In this document: piece after piece, positions 37,149-57,670 of the stretch
How positions within the stretch are numbered: position 1 is the stretch's first letter
Layout: each line of letters begins with the position of its first letter
Assembly (NCBI GenBank): GCA_016699535.1
Contig: CP064980.1
Coordinates: 1,425,728-1,489,727 of the forward strand
DNA from: Myxococcales bacterium
Lineage (GTDB): Bacteria > Myxococcota_A > Polyangia > Polyangiales > GCA-016699535
Reading direction: 5' to 3'
DNA length: 64,000 bases
The notes under the pieces: model-generated
Seen by the model: the letters and a program-made list of their open reading frames with translations, nothing else
Database searches by the model: none
What the model was told of the DNA's origin: nothing
Position numbers and translations under genes: made by a program

Positions 37149-37160
37149 TTGGTCTTAGTT

Positions 37161-37700
37161 TCAGCTTTCTATGCGACCCTTTAAGATCCAATCGATGACC
37201 AAATCCAGTAATTCTGCATCGCTTGCCTGATCCAGCTCGTCAAGCATTTCGATGTGGCGTGCAAGGTCGACAGCGTTATCATCATACAACTGGTTAATTA
37301 TGTCGCGCAAATCGGTAGGCAGTTCGAGAAGCGCTTCAAAAATGAGTTGGATTTCTGCGTTGCTTAGGCTTGCTTCCTTCACAAAGCTGATGCGCAAAGG
37401 CGAGCAGCGTCGTTTTTGCGCGACGCTTAGTATCCAGTAACGAATCAAGTTCTGAGCAAGCAGCATGCCCCAAAGCTCTTGTTTGACACCCTCAGGTTTC
37501 TTTGACCGCAAGGTGGACGTGGCATCCAGCAGATGTGTTTTCATGTCATCATAACCAAGTTCAATCTCCCAGCGCTGCCGGTATAGCTTTGTCATGTGCG
37601 AGCGAGGATAAAGCTTCGGGTCCACAAGCGAGGTCAACAACCACATCTGTTTGCCCGTCTTAGGATGACGCAGCCAAAGTGCTCGACACTGCTGCCACAA
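37161..37700 (-). mobile_element. IS4-family transposase fragment (DDE domain middle/C-terminal part), truncated at both ends
   Basis: YRQRWEIELGYDDMKTHL (Y-2-R-3-E-6-K signature). Positions 37379-37493 are near-identical to 56789-56903. The 3' 220 nt (37161-37378) are unrelated to the other copy. Confidence 0.75.
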
Positions 37701-37709
37701 GACTTGTGA

Positions 37710-38508
37710 AAAAAGCGCACGAGGCGCTACCGGCTGGCTGCAGAGTGCAGCACCTATGGTGGCTACTTTGGACCGAATGCGTGCTGGTCTGCTGATTACA
37801 AAGGAGAGTTTGCGCTTTCAAACCACCGCCTTTACTACCCGCTGACGATTTGCGATGTCAGAAGCCGTTATCTGCTCAAGTGCAAATCACTGCCTCATAC
37901 GCGTACGCACAAGGCGAAAAAGGTCTTCGAAAAAGCTTTTTGTGAGTATAGCTTGCCGGATGTGATTCGCACGGATAACGGCGCACCTTTCGCTAGCCTC
38001 GCTCGTGCATGGCTAAGCGAACTGAGTATCTGGTGGCTACGTTTGGGCATTCGGCCGCATCGTATCGATCTAGGACGGCCCACCCAACAAGGACGCCATC
38101 CATGAACGTATTCATAAAATCTTGCTGAATGAGTGCTCCTTTGCAATGAGTCATACCGAGCAGCAGCTTCTCTTCAATCGTTTCATGCACATCTATAACA
38201 CCGAGCTACCTCATAAATCACTGAGCGATAAAGTACCCGCGGACATCTACGCTTCATCGAGCAAACGCTATCCCAGAAAAGACAAAGACCCCGAGTATCC
38301 CGATGACTTTTTCCTCGAGCGCGTCGATAAGCGAGGTGGCATTCGCTTTGCAGCGAACCACGGAATGCTCAGCCCGCTTTTAGCTGGCCAAATCATTGGC
38401 CTAAAGTGCATCGAACAACGCAGTTTTGACCTCTTCTTCGGAACAGTCTATCTAGGAGAGCTAACCCACAAAGGATTCAAACCGCTCAGACACAAATCAT
38501 CAACATAA
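37710..38508 (+). pseudogene. IS481-family-like transposase (integrase core), N-terminally truncated and frameshifted by a 4-bp tandem duplication
   Basis: PNACWSADYKGEFALSNHRLYYPLTICDVRSRYLL...IRTDNGAPFAS...LSIWWLRLGIRPHRIDLGRPTQQGRH, then CCATCCAT (38096-38103) shifts the frame. It continues HERIHKILLNEC...YNTELPHKSL in ORF 38122..38508. Confidence 0.75.
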
Positions 38509-38751
38509 ACCCCAATTCTGTTACCCATCAGGGTTTACGCTTTTGTAACCCATCAGCTTTCTGTGCACATATTTGTAGCCCAAGGTAGGCCAAATGACCC
38601 CATCTACGGGTTTTGGGATGGGACAGACGCGAGAAGTGTACTGCGGAAATATTGTGTATGTCGATTGATTTTACAGCAGAAGATGTTTCGTATTGCTAAA
38701 AACGCTGCTGGTATGGTCTTTGCAGAGTCGTAGAGTGTTTGTCGATAATCC

Positions 38752-39648
38752 ATGATGCGCCTAAACCATTTTGTATACTTTTCCCTACCTGCTTGTCTTT
38801 ATTTTACAGCATGCTCGGTAGCTGGTGATTCCACCGTTGAAGGTGACGAGGGTGCACTCGTCGGAGGTAGCATCGCCAAAGACAATGAGTTTACTTCAAT
38901 ACTCAATATCTCCGGTGTGTGTAGTGGAGTGAAGCTTTCCGATCATAGGTTGTTGACCGCGGCGCATTGTGTCACCGAAAAATCGTTGTCAGAGACTTTT
39001 GGGGCGAATCTTGCTGAAGGATATAAGCCAGGCGCCATCGAGTACATGACTGCTCAGCATGATCTAAACCGTGCAGATGTCCCATGGTCTAAGATGACTA
39101 TCGTCAATACATTTCTTCCGCTCTGGTGGAAGGAAGAATGTCAAGATGGATGTACCGTTGATGACTATATTAGTCGCGCGCCTGACCTTGCAGTTATTCA
39201 AACTGTGGAAGAATTGCCGGGTAGAGCCGCTGAGCTTGATTCCAGCGCTGTTAATCCAGGAGACGAAGTCATCATTACCGGTATGGGTTGCGAAGGCGAT
39301 CCCAATAGTGTTGATGAATATGGTCGACCGATTCGTCGGCTCAAATTTGGCATGTCCAAGGTCATCCGCGATGAACGTTACATACCTTCAGTCTATGAGG
39401 GCTACATACAAACCAATGGCTCGACCAACGATGCGTCCGCTCCACTGCTATGCCCAGGCGATTCAGGTGCGGGCGTATTCCGTTATGATCCTGCTGATCC
39501 TTCGCGTGAGCAGCTCATTGGTATCAACTCGACGTTTCCTTATGATGGCAAAGTCAACCTTCATACGCGTTTATCTGCAACGAGTGCCTATGGTGTTGCT
39601 CAGTGGTTGGAATCGATGCTGAATCCGCCACCGATCAGACCCATGTGA
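38752..39648 (+). CDS. Secreted trypsin-like serine protease (S1 family), probable lipoprotein
   Basis: Signal and lipobox LYFTAC. Catalytic His context LTAAHCV and Ser context CPGDSGAGVF. Confidence 0.85.
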   Translation: MMRLNHFVYFSLPACLYFTACSVAGDSTVEGDEGALVGGSIAKDNEFTSILNISGVCSGVKLSDHRLLTAAHCVTEKSLSETFGANLAEGYKPGAIEYMTAQHDLNRADVPWSKMTIVNTFLPLWWKEECQDGCTVDDYISRAPDLAVIQTVEELPGRAAELDSSAVNPGDEVIITGMGCEGDPNSVDEYGRPIRRLKFGMSKVIRDERYIPSVYEGYIQTNGSTNDASAPLLCPGDSGAGVFRYDPADPSREQLIGINSTFPYDGKVNLHTRLSATSAYGVAQWLESMLNPPPIRPM

Positions 39649-39893
39649 GGATAACTGGGGCCACATAGCTTTTCTTTTTAGCCAAGGATCAGTCGACTTC
39701 GAATCGGCGGCTTTGGCAAGCGCCCTCATGATAAGTAGAAGCTAAACTATCTACTGAGAAAGGAAGGCTATGCCAGATCAAGCGAGCGTCTCTCATGTTT
39801 TGTTGATGTATACTGGATCGATGCGGTCTTTACCGAAACGCCTTCGGTTACCATTTCGTGCAGCGCACACCCTAACGCTCAAGCACTTACGAA

Positions 39894-40808
39894 CTATTTG
39901 GCGTGAAAAACGGTCTGAGCACTGGCTGCTTGACTGCCCGTTGAAAAATCCAGACCGAGTTGTTCAAAAATGCTTGGGCAGTCCGAGTCGTCAAACTCAG
40001 ACATGCAACCTGGGGCTCCATATGCATTTTTGAGATCGGTTTCGGCCATGAGTGCTGCATAGTCAAACACAATGGTATTTTTGGAGGGGTCGAAGCCATG
40101 GAGTTCAATGTGAGCAAGGTTTTCATGAGAGCAGCTCTTGACCTCACCTTCTTCGGGCCATCCTGTGCACCCTGTACTTCCCAGGTGAAATGGAAAAACA
40201 ACTGGATTCCCGTCGGTGACACCCACTTCAATTCGTGCGAATTTATAACCATCGAGCCAACTCCAAAACATGGAAGTCAAACTTAGCGGGGGCGGAGCAT
40301 TCGAAAGGTCAATGTGGTTGTGCACGAAAGGAACTCCGAATTTAAACGAGATTCCGTCATAGTTCCCTTCGGGAACGTCGAGCTCAACAACAGTGTTGAG
40401 ATCTGGGTTTCCACTTTCACAAAGACCTGTTCCGTCTTCAAAATCAAGCAGGACTAGATTGTCGTATTGCCATTTGCTGTTTTCATTGAGTGTCACATCA
40501 GTGTGATGGCCGTCAGTATCAATGAGCTGAATGTCATTTATGTAGAAACGAAAATCAGCAAATTCAACAGTCGCCTGGCTAAGACCCACGTCGTGATAAA
40601 CACTTCCGCATTGGATAGCTTTTCCTGAAACCTCGGCTGAGAACTGCAAAGAAAGGTGGGTTACAGCTCCCTCCGTAGACTGGGGCTCGTTTGGGGAACT
40701 TGTCGGTGAGTCAGGATCGCTTTGTGAACAAGCTATAGAGAACAAAGCTACGACCAAACAGATGTTGTACAAAAAGCGCTCAAGGCGAAACGGCACTGCA
40801 ATCTCCAT
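39894..40808 (-). CDS. MbnP-like / metallo-mystery-pair four-Cys-motif family lipoprotein (tentative)
   Basis: ATG at 40808 gives MEIAVPFRLERFLYNICLVVALFSIAC (lipobox). FRFYINDIQL, LLDFEDGTGLC, FKFGVPFVHNH, MFWSWLDGYKF, HLGSTGC and GCMSEFDDSDC match my recollection of the TIGR04052/MbnP pattern. Not verified by search. Confidence 0.55.
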   Translation of the reverse strand: MEIAVPFRLERFLYNICLVVALFSIACSQSDPDSPTSSPNEPQSTEGAVTHLSLQFSAEVSGKAIQCGSVYHDVGLSQATVEFADFRFYINDIQLIDTDGHHTDVTLNENSKWQYDNLVLLDFEDGTGLCESGNPDLNTVVELDVPEGNYDGISFKFGVPFVHNHIDLSNAPPPLSLTSMFWSWLDGYKFARIEVGVTDGNPVVFPFHLGSTGCTGWPEEGEVKSCSHENLAHIELHGFDPSKNTIVFDYAALMAETDLKNAYGAPGCMSEFDDSDCPSIFEQLGLDFSTGSQAASAQTVFHAK

Positions 40809-42253
40809 GATCTCGAAGAGCAAGTATCTCGAAATCCGAGCCTGCGAAGTTCTTAGCTTGCACAAGCATGATGAGACAGCTTATGCCGCTCTGCCCTGAG
40901 TTTTTCAAGCTTTGAAGTACCTGTGCAGATGATGTGCCGTCTTGAGAGCTCTCGAGGTTAACTTGCAGGTTTACAGAAAAAGGCATGCTGCTCATCGCAG
41001 AGTGCATGGGATTACCGTCCGGCAAGTTAATGTCAGCATGTGCCATATTCACATAGTCGATGACGGTGCCATTGGCTAATATTTCATCTGGCATATCTGA
41101 TTGCCAGATCGCAGTGACACAGGATTGTACTCCTTTAAAACCTTCAGCAACGGGCCACTGTATCTCATAGGGCCAGAAGCGTGCGCAGGCATGGTTAACG
41201 GTGGGCTCTTCGGGTGCAGGCTCGAGCTCTTCAGGGACAGTCGGTGAGTCGTCGATTAAACTATCAGTCGGCATCGTGTTGCTTTGTGGATCAAAGCTGC
41301 ATTCTGCCACTTTGCTTTCTGGGAGTTGGAGCAGGGCTGCAAGCGGTGTAACCTCAACGTTATCAGGCCCATGCCCGTAACGAAATACCGCTCGTTCAAA
41401 CACTTGAATGCCCTCGCCAGTGCCACAGGCAAATTCCTGGCTACGGCAAAACGGCGACATCGGGCGGCCCCAACGCATCAAAGCAGAGCTATAGATGCAA
41501 TCGCGGTCATTGGGGCCACATTCACCTGTTGGAAAGTCGATACCGTTGCTTTTCCAAAGATCGAGGAAAGCTTTATAAATCCCAAAAGTAAAAGGCTGAT
41601 CAATATGGTAGGGAGATTCCGTAAACTCACTTGAATAGTTTGATGGGTCAGTTTCACATTCATACAATGCACCGTTTGCGTAGGAGCTTTCGATAGCCGG
41701 CAGGTTGTCCGGGTCAAACAGATTAACAAGCCCGCCAATCACACCCGTACGTGGACGTCTTAGATATTCGTCAAAATCGCCATCGTTACGGCCGATGGCT
41801 TTGAGATCTTGAACCGAGCGTAGGCCGATCATGCCACCCATTTGAAGCGCTAGCCACTGTGCTCCTGTTCGCGTCAACATGACTTTATAAGGCTCTTCAT
41901 GGCCAGGTTGATACTCCAGCTGGCCGTAAGGGAGTCTAAGGGTAATGATCTCCGGGCCCCAATCCCATGATCCGTCGTGAGCCCACGGCAAACTCTGTAG
42001 AGCGAGCCAGGCATTGTGCTCAACCTTTTTGCACGCCGGAAGGCGCCTTGAGATAGTGTGATCGTTTCAGGAAGGAATCGAATGCGAGTAGCGCATCGTT
42101 CAAGTAGTGCGAATCAACTCCGTCTATCAAACATCCGGCGTTAAGACCGTCGTTTACCGAGTTAATTTCATTATCATTCGACTGGTTTATTGCCGTGCAG
42201 GATCCTAACCAGAGCAACGCAACCGTGTGGCAAAAAGGCATGAATAATTTCAT
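40780..42253 (-). CDS. Hypothetical lipoprotein (about 490 aa), split by an apparent 1-nt insertion in a T5/A5 run (42026-42030)
   Basis: ORF 42020..42292 carries MKLFMPFCHTVALLWLGSC (lipobox, ATG 42253). The frame of ORF 40780..41991 is open upstream to about 42068. Joining in GCAAAAAGG gives ...APSGVQKVEHNAWLALQSLPWAHDG... No family recognised and no CXXCH motif. Confidence 0.6.
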
Positions 42254-42363
42254 AAACACGGGTCTATACTGCAAGTAGTTAGTGATGGGCATGCGGCATT
42301 TCGTCGCATGGCTGATGGTCTAGTGCAGCGAACTTTTGTGTCTGGAAGAGAAAGTTAGGAGTT

Positions 42364-42537
42364 ATGGAAGTGAACGAGGTCAAGGGGCTAAGGGTGCTTG
42401 AAGAAGAAAGTCGGCATTTGAACAAATGCTGGACATTGATACGCCAAAAGATTTTGACTTACAAAGAGGGAATAGCCGGAAAAGCCGCAGGTAGCTGGTG
42501 GATGCCGTGCCTGTCGCCAGTCCTTGCAGCATCGTTG
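42364..42537 (+). mobile_element. Possible IS3-family OrfA leucine-zipper fragment
   Basis: MEVNEVKGLRVLEEESRHLNKCWTLIRQKILTYKEGIAGK resembles the L..LE.EN..LK...A.L.LDK.IL.E...GK region of IS3-family OrfA. Weak, by eye only. Confidence 0.3.
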
Positions 42538-42800
42538 CTCTTTGGCATGAGCGGCCAGCACGCCGTGGTAGCGCAAAAGATGAGACCGCGGCGGCGGCAC
42601 CAAGGCGCAGAGGCTGGTTGTCAAATCAAGCGGCTCAAACACCACCGCTTCGGTCCCGTCCGCCTATTGTCGCTTGAGTATATAGATGAGCTTGCCATAG
42701 CGATAGCGACGCAGGTGTTTGGTGGCCACAGGCGGCCTGGACAAGTAGGGGCACAATCGGGTGCGAGCACGCTTGTCTTGGGCATCGATGCGGCTGTCGG
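42538..42800 (-). mobile_element. IS91/ISCR-family (Y2 HUH rolling-circle) transposase C-terminal remnant, distal half
   Basis: 263 bp identical to 53661-53923. The minus strand reads DSRIDAQDKRARTRLCPYLSRPPVATKHLRRYRYGKLIYILKRQ*ADGTEAVVFEPLDLTTSLCALVPPPRSHLLRYHGVLAAHAKE, with an in-frame TAG at 42664-42666. Confidence 0.7.
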
Positions 42801-43200: not shown

Positions 43201-43260
43201 TAGTGTTGGCACGTGCTTTGCAGTGATCAGGAAATGTCCATCCCAGCACCGAGGAGAGCC

Positions 43261-43929
43261 ATGAAATTATCAGATTTGCAAACCGGCCTATCTGCAGCCG
43301 TGCCCTTGGCCACGGCTTTGTTATGGAGCGCTTGCGCTATGGATGCCAGTGATCAGCAGCTGAGCACCGATCAGGGGGCCAGTGAAGCCAACCAGCAGGC
43401 TTTTTATGCGAACTTCGACTTGGCGTTTGAGTCGGATGGCGTTGTAGCGCCTACTGTTGACAACTTCCGGCTGGATTTTATTTTTGAAAAGAGCTCAACG
43501 GATGGGAATATTCAATATATTGTACGCGTCGAGCGCGTAATCGATCGTGATGTCATTGCATCTTTTGAGTTAGTAGCCGAGCCAATTGACGGCAAACCGG
43601 AACAACCTTCCCGGAGTTACCGAATGAGACCGCTCCAGGCAGCAGGAGTCGACTTTTTTGCTGACTTGCCCATGCTTGAAAATCCCATTGAATGTTTTTC
43701 CTATCCGAATGGCGATGCCAAGCAAGTTCCCTGTGAAGATGGTGCGGTCGACATGAAAGTTACTGTGACTGCCGCATCCGAAGAGACTGCCTTGTTGTCT
43801 GAAGGTAGTTCGATTGAGCTTGAAACGGCCATCACGTTACCCCATGCGAGCGAGCAGTCTGCGCAAACGTATAAAGCGATATCAACAAGCACACTTCATT
43901 TGGCCAACACCATTGAACCAAAGCCTTGA
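43261..43929 (+). CDS. Hypothetical lipoprotein
   Basis: ATG at 43261 preceded by GAGGAGAG. MKLSDLQTGLSAAVPLATALLWSAC lipobox. Confidence 0.6.
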   Translation: MKLSDLQTGLSAAVPLATALLWSACAMDASDQQLSTDQGASEANQQAFYANFDLAFESDGVVAPTVDNFRLDFIFEKSSTDGNIQYIVRVERVIDRDVIASFELVAEPIDGKPEQPSRSYRMRPLQAAGVDFFADLPMLENPIECFSYPNGDAKQVPCEDGAVDMKVTVTAASEETALLSEGSSIELETAITLPHASEQSAQTYKAISTSTLHLANTIEPKP

Positions 43930-44142: not shown

Positions 44143-44850
44143 TCATGCGGTAGACATCGAGCCTCTGCTCAACGCGGCAAAAATCAAATGAACCAAAGCT
44201 GAAGGTCTTTCGCCAAAGCTCGGCCTGGTATGCAAAATTACGCTGGCCCAGGTGTATTTCGTCACGGTCTGCCCAGGTTCATCATAGCGGATGTCTGTAT
44301 TGGGTAAGCGCAACCCTATCATGTCGGAACTGCCCAGAGATATCCCATCTTGTGGACTATATTCAAACTCTGCATCGATATGCGCGCACGGAATCCGATC
44401 CGTCGGACCTATCTCCAGAGGCGGATACCAATCCAGGACGGCGGCGTCCAAATAGTCATCCGGATCGAGCGGTGTAACATCCGGTTGTCCATTTTCGTCC
44501 GTGCTCATTGTGGAAAGAACCACGCTTAGTCCCATCGACTCCAAGGTACCGCCCAACTCCATTTCTTGCTCGAGTGCTGGGATACAAGCATTGATAAATG
44601 TATTTTTTTCCAGAAGACATTGATAACTCTTCGCATCGTCTTGCCATGTTTCAATATCTTGACACGGCGCTTGCTCATACACCTGTTCGCAAATCCATTT
44701 TTTACTATCCATGAACTCCGGATTACGAATGACAGCACCCATTTGATTTTCAATCGAGTTATCCTCCGCGCCGCTCACGGCACAGGCTCCGACGTGAAGC
44801 AAAGATAGACTTTACAGTGCAACAAGAATCAAATTAGAGACATACGTCAT
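44143..44850 (-). pseudogene. Hypothetical lipoprotein with an in-frame TAA inside the signal peptide
   Basis: ATG at 44850 reads MTYVSNLILVAL*SLSLLHVGACAVSG, with TAA at 44812-44814. The ORF track restarts at TTG 44802. Confidence 0.5.
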
Positions 44851-45186
44851 CGCCCTCTAATCAACGCAAGAAGCGATCCATGTAAACACTTGACCACTTG
44901 TGGTTGTAGGGATGACTGAAAACAACATCGCTTTTTCGATAAACAGACTTGCTCGGAGGGTACTTTCGAACGATCCAAGGACTTGACTGAAAAGCTCTGA
45001 GGTCAACGCTTGGACAGCGGAGTCGTCCGACGAATTTCTTGTCCCCACATACTTTTGCCCAACCTTTTTTGTAAGCTTCGTACTCGGTCGTAGTCTGGTT
45101 GCTTCGAGCGCTTCTCGTGAGCTTTCTTAGTGGCTAACTTTTAACCGCGACTGAGCAATTACCATACGTAGATCGTCCGCAGTTAC

Positions 45187-46908
45187 CTAACGCGAAACAA
45201 CACTTCTACGAGCGGGCCCGAATTTAAACATCGGCCAGTCACTCAAAATGGCGCCATCTGGCAAATCCCAAGCGTAGACTTTGTCGGAAAAAGCCACCAT
45301 CTCAAGATATCCGTCACCATCTAAGTCGCCCACAGCAGGGGTATTCAGCAGCAACGCTCCAGTAGTGTAGACAGGGCCATCGTTACTCGGTGATTTCGTC
45401 AACTGGCTACCATTTCCATCAATGATGTGAACAAACCAACCGCTTGAAACAACAATTTTCCATATCGGCGTCACAATCATAGTCGGCGAGAACAAAACTT
45501 CGCGGAACATCGTAATTGCCAATATTGCCAGCTTCATCACGCGGAACCATGGGAAACCCACTCACAGCAATCCCATTGAGATGCCAAGCGTAGACTTTTC
45601 CATCCTGTGTACCCATCACTACATCGACTTGCCCATCTCCAGTGATATCTCCCAGAACCGGAGAGGCAGACGGCGCACCTGATGTGGGCTTTCCTCCAGT
45701 CCAACCCGAAAGCGTCATCCCGTGCTGATCTACTGCATTCACCAAAAAACCTAGGGTTGGATGGTCGGGACTTGCGATATTATAAAAGCTTCCGCTTCCA
45801 AAAAAGATCGAAGTTGAACTATTTTGCTGGAGCAATGCTGGAGAGGACTGAATGATCTCAAAATAGTAACGTGGAAACCCTGATAATCGAATACCATTGT
45901 CATCGACTCCATAGATAGATCCGCCACAATAACCAGCTGACCAGCCACCGGGCAACTGGTACGGACAAGACCAAGCTCCTCGCCACCTACCTCGAAGTTG
46001 CCTTCGTCAGTACCTATAAATACCTCAAGTTTTTGGTCACCATCGCTATCGGCCAGCGCCGGGGAGCTCCATATCGAATCGGCGAGAAGATTCGTCAAAC
46101 TTGGTATCTTATCCACATGTGCGCTAGCCGGCGGAAAACCGGAAACCATCACACCGTTGTGATGCCAAGCATAAATGCGCTTATCAAAACCACCGACGAC
46201 AATTTCCATGTCCCCATCATTGTCGATGTCGCCCAATGCTGGTGTTCCATAAATCGGATCAGCGCACCCTGAAGGTGGAATGCCCTCATCTACAGCAAGC
46301 TTGGGCCAACCTGATTTCAACACCCCATTGTCCTCAAGTACAATCACTCCCCCGCGATGGCAGGTCGATGCTTCAGATTTGCCGACACCCACAACGATTT
46401 CAGCTTTTCCATCCTTATCAATATCAGCAGCCGCTGGAGACGATTCAATGGATTCGCTGCCCGCTGCCAGACCAAAGGCGGTCGCGGTGTCGTAGCTCCA
46501 CAACAAACTCCCACTAGCATTCAATGCTACGATATGACCAGCATTGGTAGCGATCACCACTTCAAGTGTCCCGTTACCATCAAGGTCAACGATGAGTGGC
46601 GATGATGAGTTGCATGCATAGCTTGAAGGGTTTCCAGGACACGCCCTTAACCATGTGGTTGGTACGGTGTACGACCATTTGGCATTGACGTTACCCAACG
46701 GAATCTGTGGCGTAACCGGACACATAAAAGGCTCAGAAGGCCACGGTGAGTTGTCGGCATCCAAAACATCCGATGCCCCGTCGGTAGCCAAGTTATCCAT
46801 TGCTCCATCACCTAGACTCGCGTCGTCCAACTTCCCAGAAATATTGCCCGAACCACAGGAATTGATGAGCAACGAAAAAAATACAAATGCCGAGCATCTC
46901 ATAATCAA
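45187..46908 (-). CDS. FG-GAP/VCBS-repeat (integrin-alpha-like beta-propeller) lipoprotein, split by two apparent frameshifts
   Basis: Lipobox FFSLLINSC. Repeated DLDGNGTLEVV, DIDKDGKAEIVVG, GDIDNDGDMEIVVGG, DSDGDQKLEVFIG, GDITGDGQVDVVMG and GDLDGDGYLEMVAF. ORFs 45751..46908, 45419..45955 and 45187..45561 join at the C3/G3 run 45950-45952 and the A4/T4 run 45456-45459. Confidence 0.75.
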
Positions 46909-46956: not shown

Positions 46957-47080
46957 CTAAGGTTCGGGTATTTTTTCAGTTCGCAAGCTACGAACAATAC
47001 CCCAACACATCAAAACGATAATGACACAAAACGGCAGTGCTGAAGTAATCGTTGCTGTCCGTAACGCTTGGAGGCCACAC
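46957..47080 (-). pseudogene. BCCT-family transporter C-terminal stub (about 40 codons)
   Basis: CGLQALRTATITSALPFCVIIVLMCWGIVRSLRTE matches the conserved GGL.ALQ...I..ALPF....L.M...L.K.L end of BCCT carriers. It abuts the IS91-like end at 47081. Confidence 0.5.
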
Positions 47081-47492: not shown

Positions 47493-47826
47493 TTATGCGC
47501 TCGATTTCTACTGGCATAATTATTCACGAGACATGCCATGGATGTCTATTCGTCATCATAAAAATGCCAGAGTTGGCATGTTCGGCCCTCCGCGTTCCAT
47601 CGCATTTTTACACCCACATCGGCTTCTGAGAGGTGCTCATGCATGCGAAAAAGTGGGTGACCACTAGCTGCGCATCGCGGAGTACAGCAAAGCGTAAGCC
47701 ACACAAAGTTGAAATCGATATTCACTATCTTACCGTTTTGTTCACTGGGCTTCAAAATGAGGCCTCCGCACCGCCACAATGCTAGACTCAATCAATAACA
47801 GCCCTTCTAGACTCATAGTGATTGCA

Positions 47827-50007
47827 ATGAAAACTTCGCTACTTCGTTTAGTCATTGGTATTAGCTTTTTGACTATCAGCATAAACTGCGGCCGAATCGG
47901 CTTCGATGCTGTGGCGCAAGACGCCGGAGTTGACAGCTCGGGTTCCGATAGCAATAGCCCTGCAAGTTGCTCTGACAACCTAAAAAATGCCGCGGAAACC
48001 GATATCGACTGCGGTGGTGGAAGCTGTGCAGCTTGCAATGTTGATCAGCAATGCGTTCTAAACAGTGACTGTCTAACTCAAGTATGCAGTGCAAACCGTT
48101 GTGTAGCAGTTAGCGCAACCTGTTCTGATGGGGTGCTCAATCAAGACGAGAGTGATGTCGACTGTGGTGGAAGCTGTGGACCCAACTGCAGCGATGGACA
48201 GGACTGCTCTCAAGCAACGGATTGCGTATCACTTGTGTGCTCGGGGCAGGCGTGCCAGGCGGCAACCTGTTCTGATGGGGTGCTCAATCAAGACGAGAGT
48301 GATGTCGACTGTGGTGGAAGCTGTGGACCCAATTGCAGCGATGGACAGGACTGCTCTCAAGCAACGGATTGCGTATCACTCGTGTGCTCGGGGCAGGCGT
48401 GCCAGGCGGCAACCTGTTCTGATGGGGTGCTCAATCAAGACGAGAGTGATGTCGACTGTGGTGGAAGCTGTGGACCCAATTGCGTATTTGGTAGTGGTTG
48501 TCTTTCAAACGGCGATTGCATTTCTAACGTCTGTACGATCAACATCTGCCAAGCCTTAACCTTTTACTTGGATTCTGATGGCGATGGTTATGGTGACCTC
48601 AGTAATCCAACTCAAGCCGACACCCTGCCGGCAGGCTATGCCAACAATAGTAGCGATTGCAATGATGGCGACAACGGTATCCATCCAGGCGCAGCAGAAC
48701 TGTGCGATGGAAGTGATAACGATTGCAATGTCGGCACCCTTGACGGCTCGGATCAATGTGCTGCAAATGAAAGCTGCGATGGCAGCAACTGTATTGCCCT
48801 TGCCGCAGATTGGGTGCGTGGCCTCAATGTCGATAACCAAGATATTCCAGCCGATGTTACTGAGCTTGCCGATGGAACTCTTGTTACGATTGGAACACTC
48901 GACTCGACGGAACCCTATCTTGCTCTTTGGGCACTTAATAGTGCCGGTAATGAGATGTGGAAAATGCAGTATGATACTGCGTTAACCGATCAGGGGAAAA
49001 GCATTTCTCCTGATAGTACTGGTGGATTCGCAGTGGCCGGACAGTCGCTTGTTGTTAGCGGATCGGACATGGACATTTATGTGGCCAAAGTCGATAACTC
49101 CCGTAATACCTTGTGGGCCAATTACTACGGGAGTGTTGCCTATGAAACCGAGCCGGAAGTCTTTCAAATGTCCACGGGTAATATTATTATAGCTTTTAGG
49201 ACCACTTCATATGGTGCAGGCGTGTCATGGGATTCGATTGTTGCCGCACTTGATAGCTCAGGCAATGTGCTATGGACAGTACAAATAGGAACTCCTGGTC
49301 GAGAAACAATTTACGGATTGACTGAGATCAGTACGGGCGACGTGATCATTGTTGGTTCTACAGACGGAGTAGGCGCAGGAGGACTTGATATTTTGCTTGC
49401 CTCGCTGAATCCAACTGGAGCGGTTAACTGGATCGAACTGATCGGAGATACGAGTTCTGATGTAGGTTATAATATTGATGCCCTGCCAGGGGGTGGATTT
49501 ATCATTGGAGGAATGGTCACATTTGGGGCAAGCCGCTATTTTGTTGCCAGTGTTGATAGTTCCGGGGCATTCACTTGGTCCAAGCACTACACGACAGCTA
49601 TTATTAACGATATTGTTATTCGTGACGATGGCAATATCAGCACTTTTGGCTATACGACGAGTGCTGCCCACGTCCTTACCGTTGACTCCGCGGGCACTCC
49701 CTTGTGGTATCGGCGTTTGTCACAGGGTTTTGCCAACTCGATTTTGGGAGCGTTGACAGACACCCAAGATGGCGCGTTGGTCGCAAGCCTTTGGGGTACA
49801 GGTCGAGACTTTACACTATGGAAGCAAATTGATTCGGGCGCTACTGTATGCGGGACATCGACCACTACAATAACCGAAACCGTAATTTCACCAACGCCCG
49901 TTGACGCTTCTGCTCTTGTAAGTATTTCAAGTCCATTGCTCGAGACCAATCCTACCACCGGTTTAGTAAACACTTCCCTTGGAACCTACTCAGCAACCTG
50001 CAACTAG
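47827..50007 (+). CDS. Lipoprotein with Cys-rich repeats (including a near-perfect tandem triplication), a putative metal-binding motif and an SBBP-type beta-propeller
   Basis: ATG at 47827. [29 protein letters not shown]. 49-aa repeats [60 protein letters not shown]...[24 protein letters not shown]. The C-terminal repeats fit the beta-propeller SBBP pattern. Confidence 0.85.
48121..48483 (+). repeat. 147-bp near-perfect tandem repeat, about 2.5 copies, in frame within the 47827..50007 CDS
   Basis: Copies start at 48121, 48268 and 48415. Only two substitutions were seen between the full copies (CCCAACTGC/CCCAATTGC, CACTTGTG/CACTCGTG). Confidence 0.9.
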
Positions 50008-50138: not shown

Positions 50139-50174
50139 GCATAAGGATTCCAAAGGTAGTTTTTGAGTTCGGGA
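50139..50174 (-). repeat. Solo copy of the 36-bp IS91/ISCR-like terminal sequence
   Basis: GCATAAGGATTCCAAAGGTAGTTTTTGAGTTCGGGA is identical to 47081-47116 and 53441-53476. Flanks are unrelated on both sides. Confidence 0.85.
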
Positions 50175-50469
50175 GCTGCAAGGCGTTTTTACTACGATAG
50201 CAACTAGTCGCTACATCCACAGGTAATGGGCTTCAATCTCGCACGCAGATTGAGAGGATACCGTTAGCGGCCGACCCACTCTGAATCCCGTTTGCTTCAA
50301 CGCTTGTTCTTACGGAAAGCGGCTGAATTTAACCGTCAGACTCTCAAAGCTGCCTTTCATTTCAACAATCTCGTGTAGGGAAAAAGACACCACGATGTTG
50401 TAAGCCTCACATCAATTAGTCCTCCTTTTCACTTTGACTATAGTGTTTTTTTCTGTCACAGTTGTAATT

Positions 50470-53322
50470 ATGATAAAAACTACCATCTCCATTCTGACGT
50501 TTCTTTTGATGGCAACTCTCCTTTCAGCATGCGGTCGTATCGGTTTCGACGCTGTAGACACTCAAAGTCTTCAAGTTGATTCCGATAACGATTCCGTCTT
50601 GGACAGTGCAGAGCTTGCGGAAGACACCGATGGAGACGGTATCCTGAACTTCTTGGACAATGATGACGATGGCGACCGAATCTTAACCGCTATCGAAATC
50701 ATTCAAGAGCAGGATAATGCTGATGGTGATGAAGATGGTAGACCTGCTTATCTTGACACTGATTCTGACGGCGATGGTTTGCTTGATATTGACGAAGGTC
50801 AAAGTGATCTCGATGCTGACGGAATCCCAAACTATCTCGATGTCGACTCCGATGGTGACCAAATCAGTGATTCCATCGATGCCGATACTTATTGTAGCGA
50901 TGGAATACGCAATTTTAACGAAAGTGATGTCGATTGCGGTGGTTTGGCATGTCTACCGTGCAGTGAAGGATCCTACTGCCTGTTTCCATTCGATTGCAGT
51001 TCTGGGATCTGCACCGGAAATACTTGCACTACATCCAATTGCTCCGATGGCCTAATAAACCAAGATGAGACCGATATCGATTGCGGTGGCTCAACCTGCC
51101 CGGCGTGTACGGATGGGGCTACTTGCGACTCGGGTTCCGATTGCAGTTCTGGGACATGCACCGGAAATATTTGCACTACATCAAACTGCTCCGATGGTTT
51201 AATGAACCAAGACGAAACAGATGTAGACTGCGGCGGAAGTAGCTGCAGTGCATGCTCCGATGGTCTGAGCTGTACAGTAGCAGGGGACTGCACATCGGGA
51301 GTATGCACGGGAAACATCTGTCAAGCAGCAACATGCTCAGATAGCACTTGGAACCAAGACGAGACGGATGTGGACTGTGGGGGCTCGACGTGTAGCACTT
51401 GTGCGGATGGTCTGAGTTGCACCGCTGGTGGCGATTGCGGCTCTGGAGTGTGCACAGGCAACGTCTGCCAAGTGCCAACCTGTACCGATACAGTGCAAAA
51501 CTTTGATGAAACAGACGTGGACTGCGGCGGATCGACCTGCAGCGCATGCGCCGATGGTCTAAGTTGCGCAGCTGGTAGCGATTGCATTTCAAGTGTATGC
51601 ACAGGCAACATCTGCCAAGCGGCAACCTGTAGCGATAGCGTCAATAATCAAGACGAAACCGATGTGGACTGCGGCGGAAGCAGCTGCTCAGTGTGCACCG
51701 CAGGGCAAGGCTGCTCGGCTGGCAGCGATTGTGATTCAGGGGTTTGCAGCGGAAGCATTTGCCAAGCGCCCACGTGCAGTGACAGCGTGCAAAATTTTGA
51801 TGAGACGGATATCGATTGTGGCGGAACGATATGCGGCGCTTGCACAACGGGCCAAAGCTGCGGGGTTGGCGGTGACTGTGACTCTTCTGTGTGCACAGGC
51901 AACGTGTGTCAAGCAGCGACTTGCTCCGATGGTTTTTGGAACCAGGACGAAACGACGACTGATTGTGGCGGAAGCATTTGCTCGCCCTGTCCTCCGGGAG
52001 GTGGCTGCTCGGCTGGAAGCGATTGTGACTCCGGTGTGTGCACGGGCAACGTATGTCAAGCGCCGACTTGCTCCGATAGTGTGCAAAATCAAGATGAGAC
52101 GGGTGTGGATTGCGGGGGATCTATATGTGGTAGTTGTTCCAGTGGAACTGTTGTCGAAGTTTCGGCGGGAGCTAGCCATGTATGTGCGATCACGAATTCG
52201 TCCGCTGTACGATGCTGGGGATATAACGGTAGTGCTCAACTTGGATACGGACATACCAACAACATTGGTGATGATGAACCGGCATCTGCAGCCGGCGATG
52301 TCAGTGTTGGTGGCAACGTGATTCAAGTGAGCGCTGGTGGAGTGCACACTTGTGCTCTCCTTGATACTGGTACAGTGCGTTGTTGGGGAGCAAACAGTTT
52401 TGGACAACTTGGTTATGGTAATACCACGATTATCGGTGATGATGAACTGCCCTCTAGCGCTGGCGATGTAAATGTAGGCGGCACGGTGACGCAGATTGCT
52501 ACTGGATACCAACATACCTGCGCATTGCTAAGCACCGGCACGGTGCGGTGCTGGGGGTTGAACGCATGGGGACAACTTGGTTATGGTAATACCACGACTA
52601 TCGGCGATGATGAATTGCCCTCTAGCGCTGGTGATGTAAATGTGGGCGGCACGGTAACGCAGATTTCTTGTGGTCGCTACCACACCTGCGCTCTCCTTGA
52701 CACAGGAGCGGTACGTTGTTGGGGAGGAAATAATCATGGACAACTCGGTTATGGGAACACCAATACCATTGGCGACAATGAAACACCGGCTTCAGCTGGC
52801 GATGTTTCCGTAGGGGGAACGGTAACGCAAGTCAAGGCTTCGGAGACATTGTCTTGCGCGTTACTCGATATAGGAACGGTGCGGTGCTGGGGCTGGGGAT
52901 TTACTGGTCAGCTCGGTTATGGCAACACCAATAGCATTGGCGACAATGAAACACCGGCATCAGCAGGCGATGTTTCTGTTGGAGGAACAGTTAGCAGCAT
53001 CGATGTAGGTTCAGGTCATGTTTGTGCGCTTCTCGATACAGGCACAGTACGTTGCTGGGGGACTTCCGCAGACGCACAACTTGGCTATGGAAACAAGTTG
53101 GCCATCGGTGACAATGAACTACCCTCTAGCGCTGGTGATGTCACTATCGGTGGAACGGCAACCCAAGTAGTCGCTGGCTACATATTCAGCTGTGCATTGC
53201 TTGATACGGGAGCCTTACGTTGTTGGGGCTATGGAGGATACGGAACACTTGGTTATGGCAACATAAACATGGTTGGCGATAACGAAACGCCAGCATCCGT
53301 AGGCGATGTACCTCTTTTCTAA
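50470..53322 (+). CDS. Large lipoprotein: thrombospondin-type-3-like Ca-binding repeats, about 11 Cys-rich repeats and an RCC1-like beta-propeller
   Basis: ATG at 50470. [47 protein letters not shown]-type repeats. Repeated C[ST]D..NQDETD[VI]DCGGS.C..C..G..C....DC.SGVCTGN.CQ. Repeated VRCWG.N..GQLGYGNT..IGDDE.P.SAGDV.VGG.V.Q...G..HTCALL.TG. Confidence 0.85.
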   Translation: MIKTTISILTFLLMATLLSACGRIGFDAVDTQSLQVDSDNDSVLDSAELAEDTDGDGILNFLDNDDDGDRILTAIEIIQEQDNADGDEDGRPAYLDTDSDGDGLLDIDEGQSDLDADGIPNYLDVDSDGDQISDSIDADTYCSDGIRNFNESDVDCGGLACLPCSEGSYCLFPFDCSSGICTGNTCTTSNCSDGLINQDETDIDCGGSTCPACTDGATCDSGSDCSSGTCTGNICTTSNCSDGLMNQDETDVDCGGSSCSACSDGLSCTVAGDCTSGVCTGNICQAATCSDSTWNQDETDVDCGGSTCSTCADGLSCTAGGDCGSGVCTGNVCQVPTCTDTVQNFDETDVDCGGSTCSACADGLSCAAGSDCISSVCTGNICQAATCSDSVNNQDETDVDCGGSSCSVCTAGQGCSAGSDCDSGVCSGSICQAPTCSDSVQNFDETDIDCGGTICGACTTGQSCGVGGDCDSSVCTGNVCQAATCSDGFWNQDETTTDCGGSICSPCPPGGGCSAGSDCDSGVCTGNVCQAPTCSDSVQNQDETGVDCGGSICGSCSSGTVVEVSAGASHVCAITNSSAVRCWGYNGSAQLGYGHTNNIGDDEPASAAGDVSVGGNVIQVSAGGVHTCALLDTGTVRCWGANSFGQLGYGNTTIIGDDELPSSAGDVNVGGTVTQIATGYQHTCALLSTGTVRCWGLNAWGQLGYGNTTTIGDDELPSSAGDVNVGGTVTQISCGRYHTCALLDTGAVRCWGGNNHGQLGYGNTNTIGDNETPASAGDVSVGGTVTQVKASETLSCALLDIGTVRCWGWGFTGQLGYGNTNSIGDNETPASAGDVSVGGTVSSIDVGSGHVCALLDTGTVRCWGTSADAQLGYGNKLAIGDNELPSSAGDVTIGGTATQVVAGYIFSCALLDTGALRCWGYGGYGTLGYGNINMVGDNETPASVGDVPLF

Positions 53323-53440
53323 GAAAGCCATTCTTGGTTTCAGGGGTGCCATTGGCGTCGTCCGTTGATCGACGGTGGCGAAGTGACGAAGGTGAAGTAG
53401 AGACCGCCCCTAATGTAGGCGGAAAACGCACCCCTGTGAC

Positions 53441-53960
53441 GCATAAGGATTCCAAAGGTAGTTTTTGAGTTCGGGAACAGTGTTGGCATCCACAAATTCC
53501 TTAATTTTCATGTGGCCACTGCAAGATGGGCACGCGCTCGCATCTATCTAGAACACAGTTGCCAGGAATTTGGCCCAGGGGTTTCTGCAGGGTCATCGCC
53601 CCACAAGTGGAGCTGCGCTCCGGGCTCTTCGTCCAGCAGACCTGGCACGACTTGACCGTGCTCTTTGGCATGAGCGGCCAGCACGCCGTGGTAGCGCAAA
53701 AGATGAGACCGCGGCGGCGGCACCAAGGCGCAGAGGCTGGTTGTCAAATCAAGCGGCTCAAACACCACCGCTTCGGTCCCGTCCGCCTATTGTCGCTTGA
53801 GTATATAGATGAGCTTGCCATAGCGATAGCGACGCAGGTGTTTGGTGGCCACAGGCGGCCTGGACAAGTAGGGGCACAATCGGGTGCGAGCACGCTTGTC
53901 TTGGGCATCGATGCGGCTGTCGGCAAACACGGAAAACCCAGCCACTTCGATACGTGGTGT
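53441..53960 (-). mobile_element. IS91/ISCR-family element remnant, the longest copy: 36-bp end, 3' flank and about 135 C-terminal codons of the transposase with an in-frame TAG
   Basis: The minus strand reads ...GFSVFADSRIDAQDKRARTRLCPYLSRPPVATKHL...LKRQ*ADGTEAVVFEPLD...LVPPPRSHLLRYHGVLAAHAKEHGQVVP...CSR*. This resembles the IS91-family C-terminus (RY..RPP..., LvPpPr.h..RyhGv.A). TAG at 53787-53789. Confidence 0.75.
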
Positions 53961-54088
53961 TGAGGAAATACCCAGCGGTACTGGCGCCATCTCCGCACCC
54001 AGTTGCCATCATCGACTGCATATCAAACAAAGTATTCTCGCCGAGAAATCAACTCGACTATTGGCTTCCGAGTGCTAAGGTAACTTAT

Positions 54089-56476
54089 GTGATTGATTTG
54101 CAAAAAACACTTGTTCGATTGACTCTGCTGATAGGCTTGTGTCTCAGTGTTTCGTGTGACGGACAAATCCCTAGACTGGGTCCGAGCTCGCCGGATGTTT
54201 CGTTGCCAGATGCTGACCCATTACCAACCGATGCCTCCATTGACGATCAAGACACGAACTATCCCATTATTGTGTATGATATCCGTCATTTTGCCAACAA
54301 GGGGCAAACCCCCTCTCTGGCTCTTGAGTATTTCGATCGCATGCTCACGCTTCAAACTCTGCAAGGCATCGTCAACCGCAATGTGCCGCGCTTGTATTTT
54401 GTTTACGTTCAGTTGCGTCGCGACGAAGGCACCATCAATGTGGATGAAAACTGGTTTTCTGAGCTTTGTGACCCGAGCTCAACTTTCGAATGCAGGTCTG
54501 ATTTTCAGGAACTTGATGGACGAGCCATTCTACGCTTTAAAGAAACCGACCAAAGCTCCGATGCAAGCTTGTCGATCGACGATCTGATTGCGAACTATTT
54601 TCTTGATGATCTTCAAGGCCTTGTCGTTTGGGATTCGCGCGTTCATGCGACCTCCCTGGCCGCTGCCAGCATCGCCGGCGCAACTTCTTCGCTTGCCGTT
54701 CGTTATTCGATGGACCCTAGCTCTTTGTATCAAAAGCTTGGGCACGCGCTTGCGTTGCCTGTCACCGAAGATTTATACGCCTTGGATTTTACACAACCCG
54801 GTATTCCGAACTACCCGGCTTTGGGCGACTTTGGACCTAAAAGCAACGTTTACCGCTGGCTAACCGAAACTTATATCAACACGGCCAAACTTGATACACG
54901 ACACGTGGCATGGTCGCTGGATTCTTTTTCAACAACCGTCACAAATGAGTCATGGCTCAACAACATGACCAGCCACATCAACTACTACGTCTCCAATAGA
55001 GCCATCATCGTTGATTTAGCCGTTCTGCAAGATTATACGCCCTGTGACGATCCTCTGGCTTCAATCAATTCGGATTGGCACACGGCCAATCATGTTCTAC
55101 AGGCTGCCAATCGAATCACAAGTGGACTTAAGTATGCTTATGGCTTTCCGCCTTGGCCTTACAAATACAGCAGTTGGAGAAACTGTGGTCTGTCCACAGA
55201 TAACCTTCCTCCCCCTTATGTCAGCGAACATCGGTTCGTCAATTTACTATCTAGCTATGGTTACACCAACGTCCTTGAAGCTGCCGAAAGTGGCGCTTCG
55301 GGTGACTCCATCGGCCAAATGCCTAACATGAGCTTCTTTTCCCATCTGAAAAACGATCAACACCACTACAATCTCAATGCTCAAGCGGTTGCGCCCGCAC
55401 AAGGAAGTAATGCAATCAATGGGGTGGTCTATCTCTTGGTCGCCATGGCCGACTATGAATCGGCGGGCCCCGCACATATTGCGCTGCAGGATTCAAAGAT
55501 TTTGAAGCAAAGCACAAGCCCAAGTTTCCCAGTGGCTTGGCTGATTAACCCCAACACTTTTGACCTTGCACCACAGCAATTGACGTTCATTTTAAGAACC
55601 AAAACCCAACACGACTATTTTGTTGGCGAAGCTGGTTACGGCTACTTTGATGCCAATCTTTTTTCAGAAAAGATAGCCATGGCACAGCTGGCTTCTCGAG
55701 CCTACGACCGTTACGGCTTAAGCATTACTGGTTTCACTATTTTCACACATAACATAGACCAAAAGGCCCTCCTGAGCCCCGAAGCACTTGACATGATGTC
55801 AGCTTTTAGCGGTGATGGCCTAGGCACCAGCCCCTCGGACGGCGATGGCGGAGATATCCGGATACAAAACCGTGTACCAATGATCAATGTCCGAGCCTAT
55901 TTTCATCCCGAGGATGATCCTGTCGTGGCTGTCCAACAGTTCCTCGCGCAACACACGTACCATGCGGGTGCGCCTAACTTTTGGATCGCACGATCGATCT
56001 TCATGGGTCGAGCTACAGTCCAAACCTATATCGACGAACTGAAAAGGCAAACGCCCGGTCGTGACTACCGGATTGTCGATCCCTACACTTTCTTTTATTT
56101 GCTTCGGCAATACCTGGGTTCCAACAACAACTATCGAGCCAGCTACCTGCAAGACACCTTTCCAAAAACGGTTAAGCCCAATCAGCTCGTGGCATTTAGT
56201 GTAACCATTCGGAACGATGGCTGGGATACTTGGCAAGCTAGTGGCGTCAATCCTTATGGCATAGGAGCTACCATCGACGGACAAAGCCCCTATCCCATCG
56301 CACAGCTACTGTCCCAAGACGTCGCTCCGTCCCAAAGCATCACCGTTGACTTGCAAATTCAAGCACCCTCAAGCCCCGGAATGCACGAATTGAAGATCGA
56401 TCTCAAAAAAGAAAACATCACCTGGTTCGAAAGCCAGCTTGATATACCCAGGTATATTCCCTTCACGGTCGAGTAA
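54089..56476 (+). CDS. Large lipoprotein, possibly a GxGYxYP-family glycoside-hydrolase-like protein with a C-terminal Ig-like (NBR1/CARDB-like) domain
   Basis: GTG at 54089 with AAGG 8 nt upstream. MIDLQKTLVRLTLLIGLCLSVSC lipobox. LQTLQGIVNRNVPRLYF and GEAGYGYFD resemble the GxGYxYP family. C-terminal VAFSVTIRNDGWDTW...ITVDLQIQAPSSPGMHELKIDL. Confidence 0.75.
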   Translation: MIDLQKTLVRLTLLIGLCLSVSCDGQIPRLGPSSPDVSLPDADPLPTDASIDDQDTNYPIIVYDIRHFANKGQTPSLALEYFDRMLTLQTLQGIVNRNVPRLYFVYVQLRRDEGTINVDENWFSELCDPSSTFECRSDFQELDGRAILRFKETDQSSDASLSIDDLIANYFLDDLQGLVVWDSRVHATSLAAASIAGATSSLAVRYSMDPSSLYQKLGHALALPVTEDLYALDFTQPGIPNYPALGDFGPKSNVYRWLTETYINTAKLDTRHVAWSLDSFSTTVTNESWLNNMTSHINYYVSNRAIIVDLAVLQDYTPCDDPLASINSDWHTANHVLQAANRITSGLKYAYGFPPWPYKYSSWRNCGLSTDNLPPPYVSEHRFVNLLSSYGYTNVLEAAESGASGDSIGQMPNMSFFSHLKNDQHHYNLNAQAVAPAQGSNAINGVVYLLVAMADYESAGPAHIALQDSKILKQSTSPSFPVAWLINPNTFDLAPQQLTFILRTKTQHDYFVGEAGYGYFDANLFSEKIAMAQLASRAYDRYGLSITGFTIFTHNIDQKALLSPEALDMMSAFSGDGLGTSPSDGDGGDIRIQNRVPMINVRAYFHPEDDPVVAVQQFLAQHTYHAGAPNFWIARSIFMGRATVQTYIDELKRQTPGRDYRIVDPYTFFYLLRQYLGSNNNYRASYLQDTFPKTVKPNQLVAFSVTIRNDGWDTWQASGVNPYGIGATIDGQSPYPIAQLLSQDVAPSQSITVDLQIQAPSSPGMHELKIDLKKENITWFESQLDIPRYIPFTVE

Positions 56477-56549
56477 TCCTCATGAACAGTCCCTGCGCAG
56501 CCAAAATCACATAGGTAAGAAAAGCGTAAAGTTAGATAGTTAAGTGTTT

Positions 56550-57451
56550 TCATGGGGGCATGGAGGAGCCATGCGGGTCACTTAAGGCCCCAGGTGGCGA
56601 AAAGTGGCGGTTTCTCGGGTATTTGGAAGACTTGGATTTAAGCGCGCGTGGACAGCTACTTTTCTTCTTTCGAGTGGGTAAGATGAAGAGTTCGGTTTGT
56701 TTCTGCAGGGCAATGAGTTTTTTCGGAATACTTCCCGGAGTGACGATGGCACAAAACATCCACTCAAGGGCAATCATACGCATGACAATCACAAAGCTGA
56801 TGCGCAAAGGCGAGCAGCGTCGTTTTTGCGCGACGCTTAGTATCCGGTAACGAATCAAGTTCTGAGCAAGCAGCAGGCCCCAAAGCTCTTGTATGACACC
56901 CTCTAAACGCAGCTGCCGTGACAAGATGGGTTTTCACCGAACTGAGCATGACCATCGGGCACAAGGGATAGCCGCTCGGGCCATAATCCCCAGCACTCGC
57001 TGTGCCAAAGGCTTTGTCGTTCGTCGCGCTTTCGTCGCAATGAAATAACGAACCATCCATCGTATAGACCTTCAGTCCATGAAAGTCCTTATGCTCCGCT
57101 TGCTTATCCCAGTGCAATGCGCTCGGTTTCGCAAAGCCACTGCAGTGGCTCGACTCCCACGGGCTGCCGTGCCTGGGTGATGCTGCTTTTGGCGACTTCC
57201 TTGTCCGAAGGCAGCGACAAATCTAACTCGCGCACCACTTCGCTGGTGGGGCGGTCGCGAACCAACGCCATCCCGATGAGCACCCAAATCACCTGCTCCA
57301 TCGGTAAACGCAGACGTCGAACCGTGGCACTGCCTGTTTGCTCCAAAGCCTGCCCTATCCATTCATACGGCAACTGCTTGGCACGCTTATCGGCTCGCAG
57401 CACATGCCCGTACATCCCGTATAAGGTCTCGATGCTGGTCTCGCTTGGCAT
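56550..57451 (-). mobile_element. IS4-family IS, an internal-deletion derivative: N-terminal domain plus start of DDE, then a jump to the C-terminal part
   Basis: ORF 57104..57451 carries an Nterm_IS4-like motif ([21 protein letters not shown]). ORF 56764..57117 (VYTMDGSLFHCDESATNDKAFG...YPLCPMVML) runs into ...KTHLVTAAAFRG. There the sequence continues out of frame with the C-terminal part (VIQELWGLLLAQNLIRY...) of ORF 56550..56924. Confidence 0.75.
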
Positions 57452-57670
57452 ACCCCCTTCATCCGATCACGCCGTTTTGATCCCAGCACGCTTTTTTCGC
57501 AATTTCACACCCTCGGAGCTCTTATCCGATCGGCAGTGGGTTTCGAGGCCCCACTTTGGTAGGCTGTGTTTGACTGAAGTGGCATAAATTGGGGCAAAAA
57601 ATTGCCACAATTGTCATCTTTTGGCTTTTTTGTTGTCTAATTTGGCATGACTGCTTAGGGTGCCGGGCAT

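Follow-up and report, generated by a model that had tools for sequence, protein, structure and literature searches.

How did a 20.5-kb block of lipoprotein genes and broken transposase genes come to lie between two genes that adjoin each other in related myxobacteria? The question is raised by the interval 37149-57670 of a 64,000-nucleotide stretch of a Myxococcales genome (assembly GCA_016699535.1, contig CP064980.1, positions 1,425,728 to 1,489,727 of the forward strand), the whole of which is referred to here as the window. On its left, the interval is flanked by a core gene for a fused homocysteine S-methyltransferase/MTHFR of 622 amino acids (35280-37148, plus strand), with 60-77% amino acid identity to its counterparts in 80 Polyangiales loci, and on its right by another core gene, that of a LolA-like/DUF4292 lipoprotein (57671-58492, plus strand; weak matches to both LolA_like and DUF4292). 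An earlier, sequence-only reading of this DNA described the interval as an accessory island that was assembled by insertion sequences (IS) and bracketed by IS4 remnants. The analysis presented here indicates that it is probably a lineage-specific, IS-scarred and decayed mosaic within a conserved gene pair, long immobile and fixed in the species, which carries nine lipoprotein genes.

The source of the window is a Polyangiales/Sandaracinaceae-type myxobacterium of about 50% GC. The best relatives of its methyltransferase/MTHFR protein come from metagenome-assembled genomes of uncultured Polyangiales and Sandaracinaceae, the closest of them (L001) having 77% amino acid identity and a GC content of 51%, whereas most of the relatives are at 64-73% GC. 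DNA nearly identical to the window is present in activated-sludge, sludge and bioreactor metagenomes.

Comparison of the window proteins with the 80 fetched loci of the relatives (tblastn) showed that, in 24 Polyangiales/Sandaracinaceae relatives from several genera and with GC contents from 51 to 73%, the LolA-like gene is located 3-190 bp downstream of the methyltransferase gene and is usually followed by two ABC ATPase genes; in the closest relative, the methyltransferase and LolA-like genes overlap. In the window, the same two genes are 20.5 kb apart, and neither the nine genes located between them (hereafter the cargo) nor the IS fragments have a match in the relatives' loci. Synteny thus bears out the abrupt change of gene content that had been noted at both flanks, and, because the flank genes adjoin in 24 relatives, parsimony favors the view that 37149-57670 is a 20.5-kb insertion in the lineage of the window. 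The gene pair is absent from the more distant Polyangiaceae. One locus that departs from this pattern (L002) is not an IS island but has been rearranged in another way, an RND pump lying downstream. An exact-sequence look-up of both flank proteins returned no match, hence no strain with an empty site.

No transposase in the interval is complete. The only mobility genes are fragments of IS4, IS481 and IS91/ISCR transposases, as identified with hidden Markov models (HMMs). The first IS4-family fragment (A; 37379-37700, minus strand) is truncated on both sides and retains only about positions 251-331 of the family model; the open reading frame (ORF) that contains it (37164-37817, minus strand) matches NF033592 over positions 251-331 of 332 (E 3e-21) and DDE_Tnp_1 over positions 139-200 of 200. 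It is fused in frame to a 72-codon ORF tail of unknown origin (37161-37378, minus strand), which has no significant family match. The second fragment (B; 56550-57451, minus strand) consists of the N-terminal half and the C-terminal tail of a transposase gene, with an internal deletion and frameshifts (Nterm_IS4, E 1.3e-24; NF033592 positions 3-86 and 91-158). The 115-bp direct repeat that had been reported between them (37379-37493 and 56789-56903, 3 mismatches, 19,410 bp apart) is real; it is 97% identical and consists of internal IS4 coding sequence, and the similarity between the two fragments ends at 37379. The fragments had also been taken for complementary deletion products, and this does not hold because model positions 159-250 are missing from both. 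By the coordinates of the HMM matches, A and B are two independently truncated copies, the 115 bp being the stretch that both happened to keep.

Next to fragment A lies an IS481-family transposase fragment (37710-38508, plus strand; NF033577 positions 128-231 and 226-283 of 284, Pfam rve and rve_3), which lacks the N-terminal third and contains one frameshift. A possible IS3 OrfA-like fragment (42364-42535, plus strand) was recognized by reading alone, and the respective segment (42364-42537) yielded no Pfam or NCBIfam match. Accordingly, the inventory of IS families given by the sequence-only reading stands for IS4 (twice), IS481 and IS91/ISCR, all recovered with HMMs, but not for IS3, and the IS91/ISCR remnant occupies four sites rather than three.

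The longest copy of this remnant, a unit of 485 bp (53439-53923, minus strand), corresponds to the C-terminal third of the transposase and contains a stop codon and a frameshift. It matches Y2_Tnp (E 1e-13), the IS91 model (positions 240-354 of 356) and, as the best-fitting model, ISCR clade Ia (positions 323-422 of 509, E 6e-18), with the coverage of the ISCR model limited to about 323-470 of 509; the amino acid identity to plasmid ISCR/IS91 transposases is 39-40%. The other copies, all on the minus strand, comprise the last 265 bp of the unit (positions 221-485; 42536-42800, 100% identical to 53659-53923), its positions 1-245 (47079-47323, 99% identical to 53439-53683) and, as read from the sequence, only its first 36-37 bp (50140-50176). 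An in-frame TAG and a frameshift preceding a Cys-x-x-Cys motif are common to the copies, which means that the element had lost its activity before it was copied. One discrete left boundary (..GCATAAGGATTCC..) recurs at 47079, 50140 and 53439, where the three left flanks are unrelated, and a discrete right boundary is common to two sites. With respect to the unit, the pieces at 42536 and 47079 follow each other in permuted order at a distance of 4.3 kb and overlap by 22 bp, TGCTCTTTGGCATGAGCGGCCA (42536-42560 and 47299-47323); this arrangement may be a signature of circle integration or rolling-circle transposition, or may have arisen by chance.

The cargo is homogeneous in one respect. With a lipobox defined as [LVI][ASTVI][GAS]C within approximately 40 residues of the start and read in the translations, a lipobox Cys is found near the N-terminus of all nine products (FTAC, SIAC, LGSC, WSAC, VGAC, INSC, SINC, LSAC and SVSC), compared to about 4 of the 38 genes in the rest of the window (Fisher p = 5e-7). 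This agrees with the earlier observation that all nine start with a signal peptide or lipobox, although two of the N-termini appear to require correction of an upstream frameshift for the lipobox to be read.

The composition of the cargo is host-like. GC content is flat across the border, at about 0.50 inside and outside, and the nine cargo genes do not differ from 32 flanking genes in GC3, the GC content of third codon positions (p = 0.48), or in codon-usage distance (p = 0.76; Mann-Whitney test in both cases). A recent foreign origin of the cargo thus finds no support in GC, GC3 or codon usage. Furthermore, the RCC1-repeat lipoprotein of the island has a paralog outside it, at 15864-18304, next to priA. 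This paralog is full-length and has the same domain order (lipobox, CGR[IL]G[FY]D motif, Asp repeats, six-Cys repeats, RCC1 repeats), with 53% amino acid identity in the N-terminal part and 62% in the RCC1 part; therefore, at least part of the cargo belongs to a genome-native family. The term 'accessory', in the sense of foreign DNA, is not supported, given the host-like GC, GC3 and codon usage and the paralog outside.

The same mosaic is found in several independent samples. Four metagenomes from sludge and bioreactors, sequenced in different studies (X1-X4; Logan short-read contigs of 150-700 bp at about 3x depth), contain pieces distributed along the whole interval, with 99-100% identity to it and with depths similar to those of the flanks. 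Among these short, low-depth contigs, no joint that would indicate a deletion or inversion between the IS4 repeats was observed. The left border lies inside a contig of X1 (37121-37299), the junction between IS4 fragment A and the IS481 fragment is spanned by contigs of X1 and X3, the junction between the IS91 remnant and the adjacent symporter stub is inside an X1 contig (47081-47424), and the deletion junction of IS4 fragment B at 56903 is inside an X2 contig (56752-56925).

These contigs also revise the view of gene decay within the cargo. The FG-GAP beta-propeller gene (45187-46908, minus strand) is split into three ORFs in the window, all with FG-GAP and FG-GAP_3 matches, and had been interpreted as a broken gene. 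Compared to the window, the short-read contigs have one base fewer at 45456 (X1 and X4) and an extra C after 45977 (X1); when both indels are corrected, the three ORFs become a single lipoprotein ORF of 571 amino acids, so that the 'pseudogene' is an assembly artefact and the gene is intact. Similar indel artefacts are suspected at the N-terminus of the gene that overlaps the MbnP-family gene (42020-42066), at 44800-44860, and in the paralog at 15864-18304, which is also split into three ORFs. The lesson for the annotation of this genome is that apparent pseudogenes can be indel errors, with the FG-GAP gene as the demonstrated case.

Taken together, the mosaic leads us to infer stepwise, IS-mediated construction, which is what 'IS-assembled' would mean here. 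Under this scenario, IS4 (twice), IS481, an IS91/ISCR-type element and perhaps IS3 would have landed at the site over time, and the nine lipoprotein genes would have accumulated among these insertion sequences. Later deletions and recombination would then have stripped all IS ends and complete transposases. The block is now immobile and fixed in the species; its cargo genes are intact, apparently functional and of host-typical codon usage. The island illustrates how an uncultured, low-GC activated-sludge myxobacterium adds to its stock of surface proteins at a locus that the family otherwise keeps conserved, and is a clean example of a fossil island, with host-like composition and all mobility genes dead.

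Several observations weigh against this scenario. The symmetrised tetranucleotide distance is higher inside the interval than outside (0.24 against 0.15, p = 5e-5), which could mean foreign origin; of the compositional break expected of an island, none is seen in GC, GC3 or codon usage. The distance peaks over the repetitive Cys-repeat and RCC1 genes, and the top values outside the interval fall over the region of the paralog (14-20 kb); because the peaks sit on repeat-rich genes and on the outside paralog, the signal is at least partly a property of the protein family. Three cargo proteins (the GxGYxYP protein, the protease and the overlapping partner of the MbnP-family protein) are near-orphans, for which homolog searches gave only self-matches or distant relatives and no donor lineage can be named, so that the source of these three may be native or foreign. 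The right border (57445-57648) has no coverage by independent contigs of X1-X4. Finally, because no comparator is closer than 77% amino acid identity, the insertion cannot be dated, and stepwise and single-event origins are indistinguishable.

The IS91/ISCR remnants suggest a more specific history, namely that the right half of the interval (~42.5-56.5 kb) was built by ISCR/IS91-type rolling-circle capture, with lipoprotein genes stacked head to tail (at 47079, 50140 and 53439). From a single fixed end, ISCR elements are known to move the genes next to them (PMC13393415), and in the island, a single left boundary (GCATAAGGATTCC) recurs with three left flanks and, each time, with a large lipoprotein gene to its right. 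The remnant is nearest to the ISCR clade Ia model, and its permuted halves (positions 221-485 and 1-245, 4.3 kb apart, with 22 bp in common), located at 42536 and 47323, would represent a rolling-circle product slightly longer than unit length. The 3' terminus of the transposon would then be GCATAAGG, and the intact element would end at ..CCTTATGC. However, the fixed boundary is not located in an oriIS further downstream but inside the coding frame of the transposase, about 18 codons short of the point at which a 40%-identical plasmid relative ends; hairpins of an oriIS or terIS were not identified at the remnant copies, for which there is no intact copy to serve as reference; and the inactivating lesions common to all copies show that the element was dead when copied. 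In addition, the three large lipoprotein genes are located on the transposase-body (5') side of the fixed boundary, which is opposite to ISCR1, where capture concerns genes past oriIS, on the downstream side of the transposase (PMC13393415), and a small overlap between two independent truncations has a probability of about 5-10% by chance. Considering both sides, we regard rolling-circle capture as unlikely. If true, it would mean that ISCR-style gene capture acts on secretome genes in Myxococcota and not on resistance genes in Proteobacteria; unless it is right, nothing changes in the knowledge of mobile elements.

The two IS4 fragments could, in principle, be the ends of a composite transposon that delivered 19.4 kb in one step between two direct IS4 copies, both truncated later. 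Fragments in the same orientation, located within 230 bp of each border and 97% identical over 115 bp, are what such a history would leave. Nevertheless, both fragments lack IS ends, and the searches for terminal inverted repeats and for a target duplication were negative (the former, around fragment B, gave chance-level pairs only, and no direct repeat of 9 bp or more is shared by the two borders); accordingly, the description of the interval as a composite unit bracketed by IS4 is not borne out. Moreover, 218 bp of an unrelated ORF tail separate the left border from fragment A, model positions 159-250 are absent from both copies, and the debris of three other IS families together with two transporter stubs inside the interval points to many events. 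One-step delivery is thus quite improbable in our estimate.

The reverse polarity, under which an ancestral block at this site would have disappeared from the relatives sampled, would fit the host-like codon usage and profits from the lack of a close relative for comparison. It would require many independent precise deletions, since the flank genes are adjacent in 24 genomes of several genera that range from 51 to 73% GC and overlap in the closest relative, and the IS debris at both borders fits insertion; on parsimony, this very improbable reading is rejected. It is hardly credible that the block is a chimera, created when unrelated DNA was merged at IS repeats during long-read assembly. This reading is rejected because independent short-read contigs span the left border and several internal junctions of the mosaic, codon usage is as in the host, and in four independent metagenomes the pieces of the island are found together with the flanks at a comparable, low depth; what speaks for it are the indel errors of the assembly and the presence in the window of repeats of 245-265 bp with 100% identity.

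Under the reading that we prefer, insertion with subsequent decay, the interval resembles several known classes of elements in some respects only. In agreement with the earlier claim that it is neither a phage nor an integrative and conjugative element (ICE), the Pfam search of all ORFs of at least 110 amino acids detected neither a recombinase of the tyrosine or serine type nor any integrase, phage or conjugation domain in the interval. Phage and ICE are rejected because no integrase, phage structural or conjugation genes are present. The borders also lack a tRNA, the sole one in the window being a tRNA-Leu at 26516-26604, 10.5 kb from the left border, and a scan of the window at Rfam gathering thresholds found only this tRNA and a 6S RNA, both outside the island; the absence of an integrase, a tRNA and att-like repeats from the borders had been correctly noted from the sequence.

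Similarly to the genomic islands of the Hacker/Kaper definition, the interval is a block of more than 10 kb that is absent from the relatives' locus, contains remnants of mobility genes, is flanked by direct repeats and carries accessory surface or secreted proteins. It differs from them in having no tRNA anchor, integrase or att repeats and in its host-like GC and codon usage, and every mobility gene is a fragment, which makes it a fossil rather than a mobile element. Composite transposons, such as Tn10 and Tn5, resemble it in the two same-family IS copies in direct orientation near the cargo ends; here, in contrast, the copies are truncated or internally deleted, terminal inverted repeats and a target-site duplication are lacking, and the debris of three further IS families is present inside. 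The likeness to ISCR1/ISCR2 arrays consists in an HUH/Y2 remnant nearest to ISCR clade Ia, with one fixed boundary and variable neighbors, and in copies that are all in the same orientation and interleaved with cargo genes. Unlike in those arrays, only an inactivated C-terminal third is present, the boundary is inside the coding region with no oriIS/terIS recognised, and the cargo consists of lipoprotein genes in a myxobacterium instead of resistance genes in Proteobacteria.

Myxococcota genomes encode hundreds of lipoproteins along with numerous paralog families. The island resembles such lineage-specific expansions of lipoproteins and secreted proteins in that its products have a lipobox and include beta-propeller, Cys-repeat and protease domains, with a paralog of one product elsewhere in the window, and differs in that nine genes are packed in one inserted block full of IS debris. 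The cargo products are presumably ordinary cell-surface or periplasmic proteins, namely a protease, an MbnP pair, beta-propellers, Cys-repeat proteins and a putative glycosidase.

The first of these genes (38752-39648, plus strand) encodes a trypsin-like serine protease lipoprotein of 298 amino acids (PF00089, E 5.5e-11; N-terminus ...LYFTAC), for which no homolog above 25% identity was found. It is followed by the MbnP pair (39894-42253), two overlapping genes on the minus strand. The MbnP-family lipoprotein (39894-40865; PF20243, E 1.3e-38; lipobox ...LFSIAC) has as its partner (40780-42253), identified in the translations, a lipoprotein of unknown family without a Pfam match or haem motifs. 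Among 1.84 billion representatives, no more than 3 distant relatives of the partner were found (the best with 39% identity over 180 amino acids), and its signal peptide and lipobox are encoded by an ORF (42020-42319) in another frame than the body of the gene (40780-42066). Two further products, also without a Pfam match and of unknown family, are a lipoprotein of 238 amino acids (43213-43929, plus strand; lipobox ...LLWSAC) and a protein of 219 amino acids (44143-44802, minus strand), which has ...LLHVGAC at the start and the N-terminal signal region of which is probably displaced by a frameshift.

Beyond the FG-GAP gene, the two transporter stubs that had been recognized by the sequence-only reading are confirmed by HMMs and flank one of the IS91/ISCR copies: the C-terminus of a BCCT transporter (46957-47078, minus strand; PF02028 positions 451-485 of 485, E 2.8e-7) and the N-terminus of a Na+/solute symporter (47324-47492, minus strand; TIGR02121 PutP positions 3-41, E 5.9e-5).

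The three large lipoprotein genes occupy the rest of the interval, all on the plus strand. The first (47779-50007) encodes a six-Cys-repeat protein of 742 amino acids with a MopE-type motif (PF11617) and a beta-propeller-like C-terminal half; its lipobox ...ISINC is followed by GRIGFDAV. Two 147-bp in-frame tandem repeats within this gene (48115-48408) are 99% identical, far more alike than its other units, suggesting a very recent duplication or, alternatively, collapse or expansion in the assembly. The second gene (50434-53322; matches to RCC1, RCC1_2 and WD40_RLD) encodes a protein of 962 amino acids that combines Asp-rich repeats and six-Cys repeats with seven RCC1 repeats. The product of the third (53954-56476; about 795-840 amino acids) is a putative glycoside hydrolase lipoprotein of the GxGYxYP family (PF14323 and PF16216), the nearest homologs of which, in Sumerlaeaceae and Verrucomicrobia, are 27-30% identical.

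Outside the island, several minor features of the window and of the related loci were observed. The 6S RNA is located at 22283-22469 (Rfam, 51 bits), and the tRNA-Leu mentioned above has the CAA anticodon. In an X1 contig that covers the start of the LolA-like gene (57649-57802), 4 substitutions and a 3-bp insertion set the sequence apart from that of the window; X1 seems to contain a second strain of the species. The neighborhood is variable across the family, but at another junction than that of the insertion in the window: in some relatives (L005, at 12740-19551, as well as L007 and L008), 3-7 kb of extra genes separate the LolA-like gene from the first of the ABC ATPase genes, and those of L005 encode, among others, a radical-SAM protein, a Cys-rich secreted protein and a lipoprotein of FG-GAP/VCBS-like type. 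In the window itself, two tandem intergenic repeats of about 158 bp, with 86-90% identity, are found at 61186-61494, downstream of the ABC genes.

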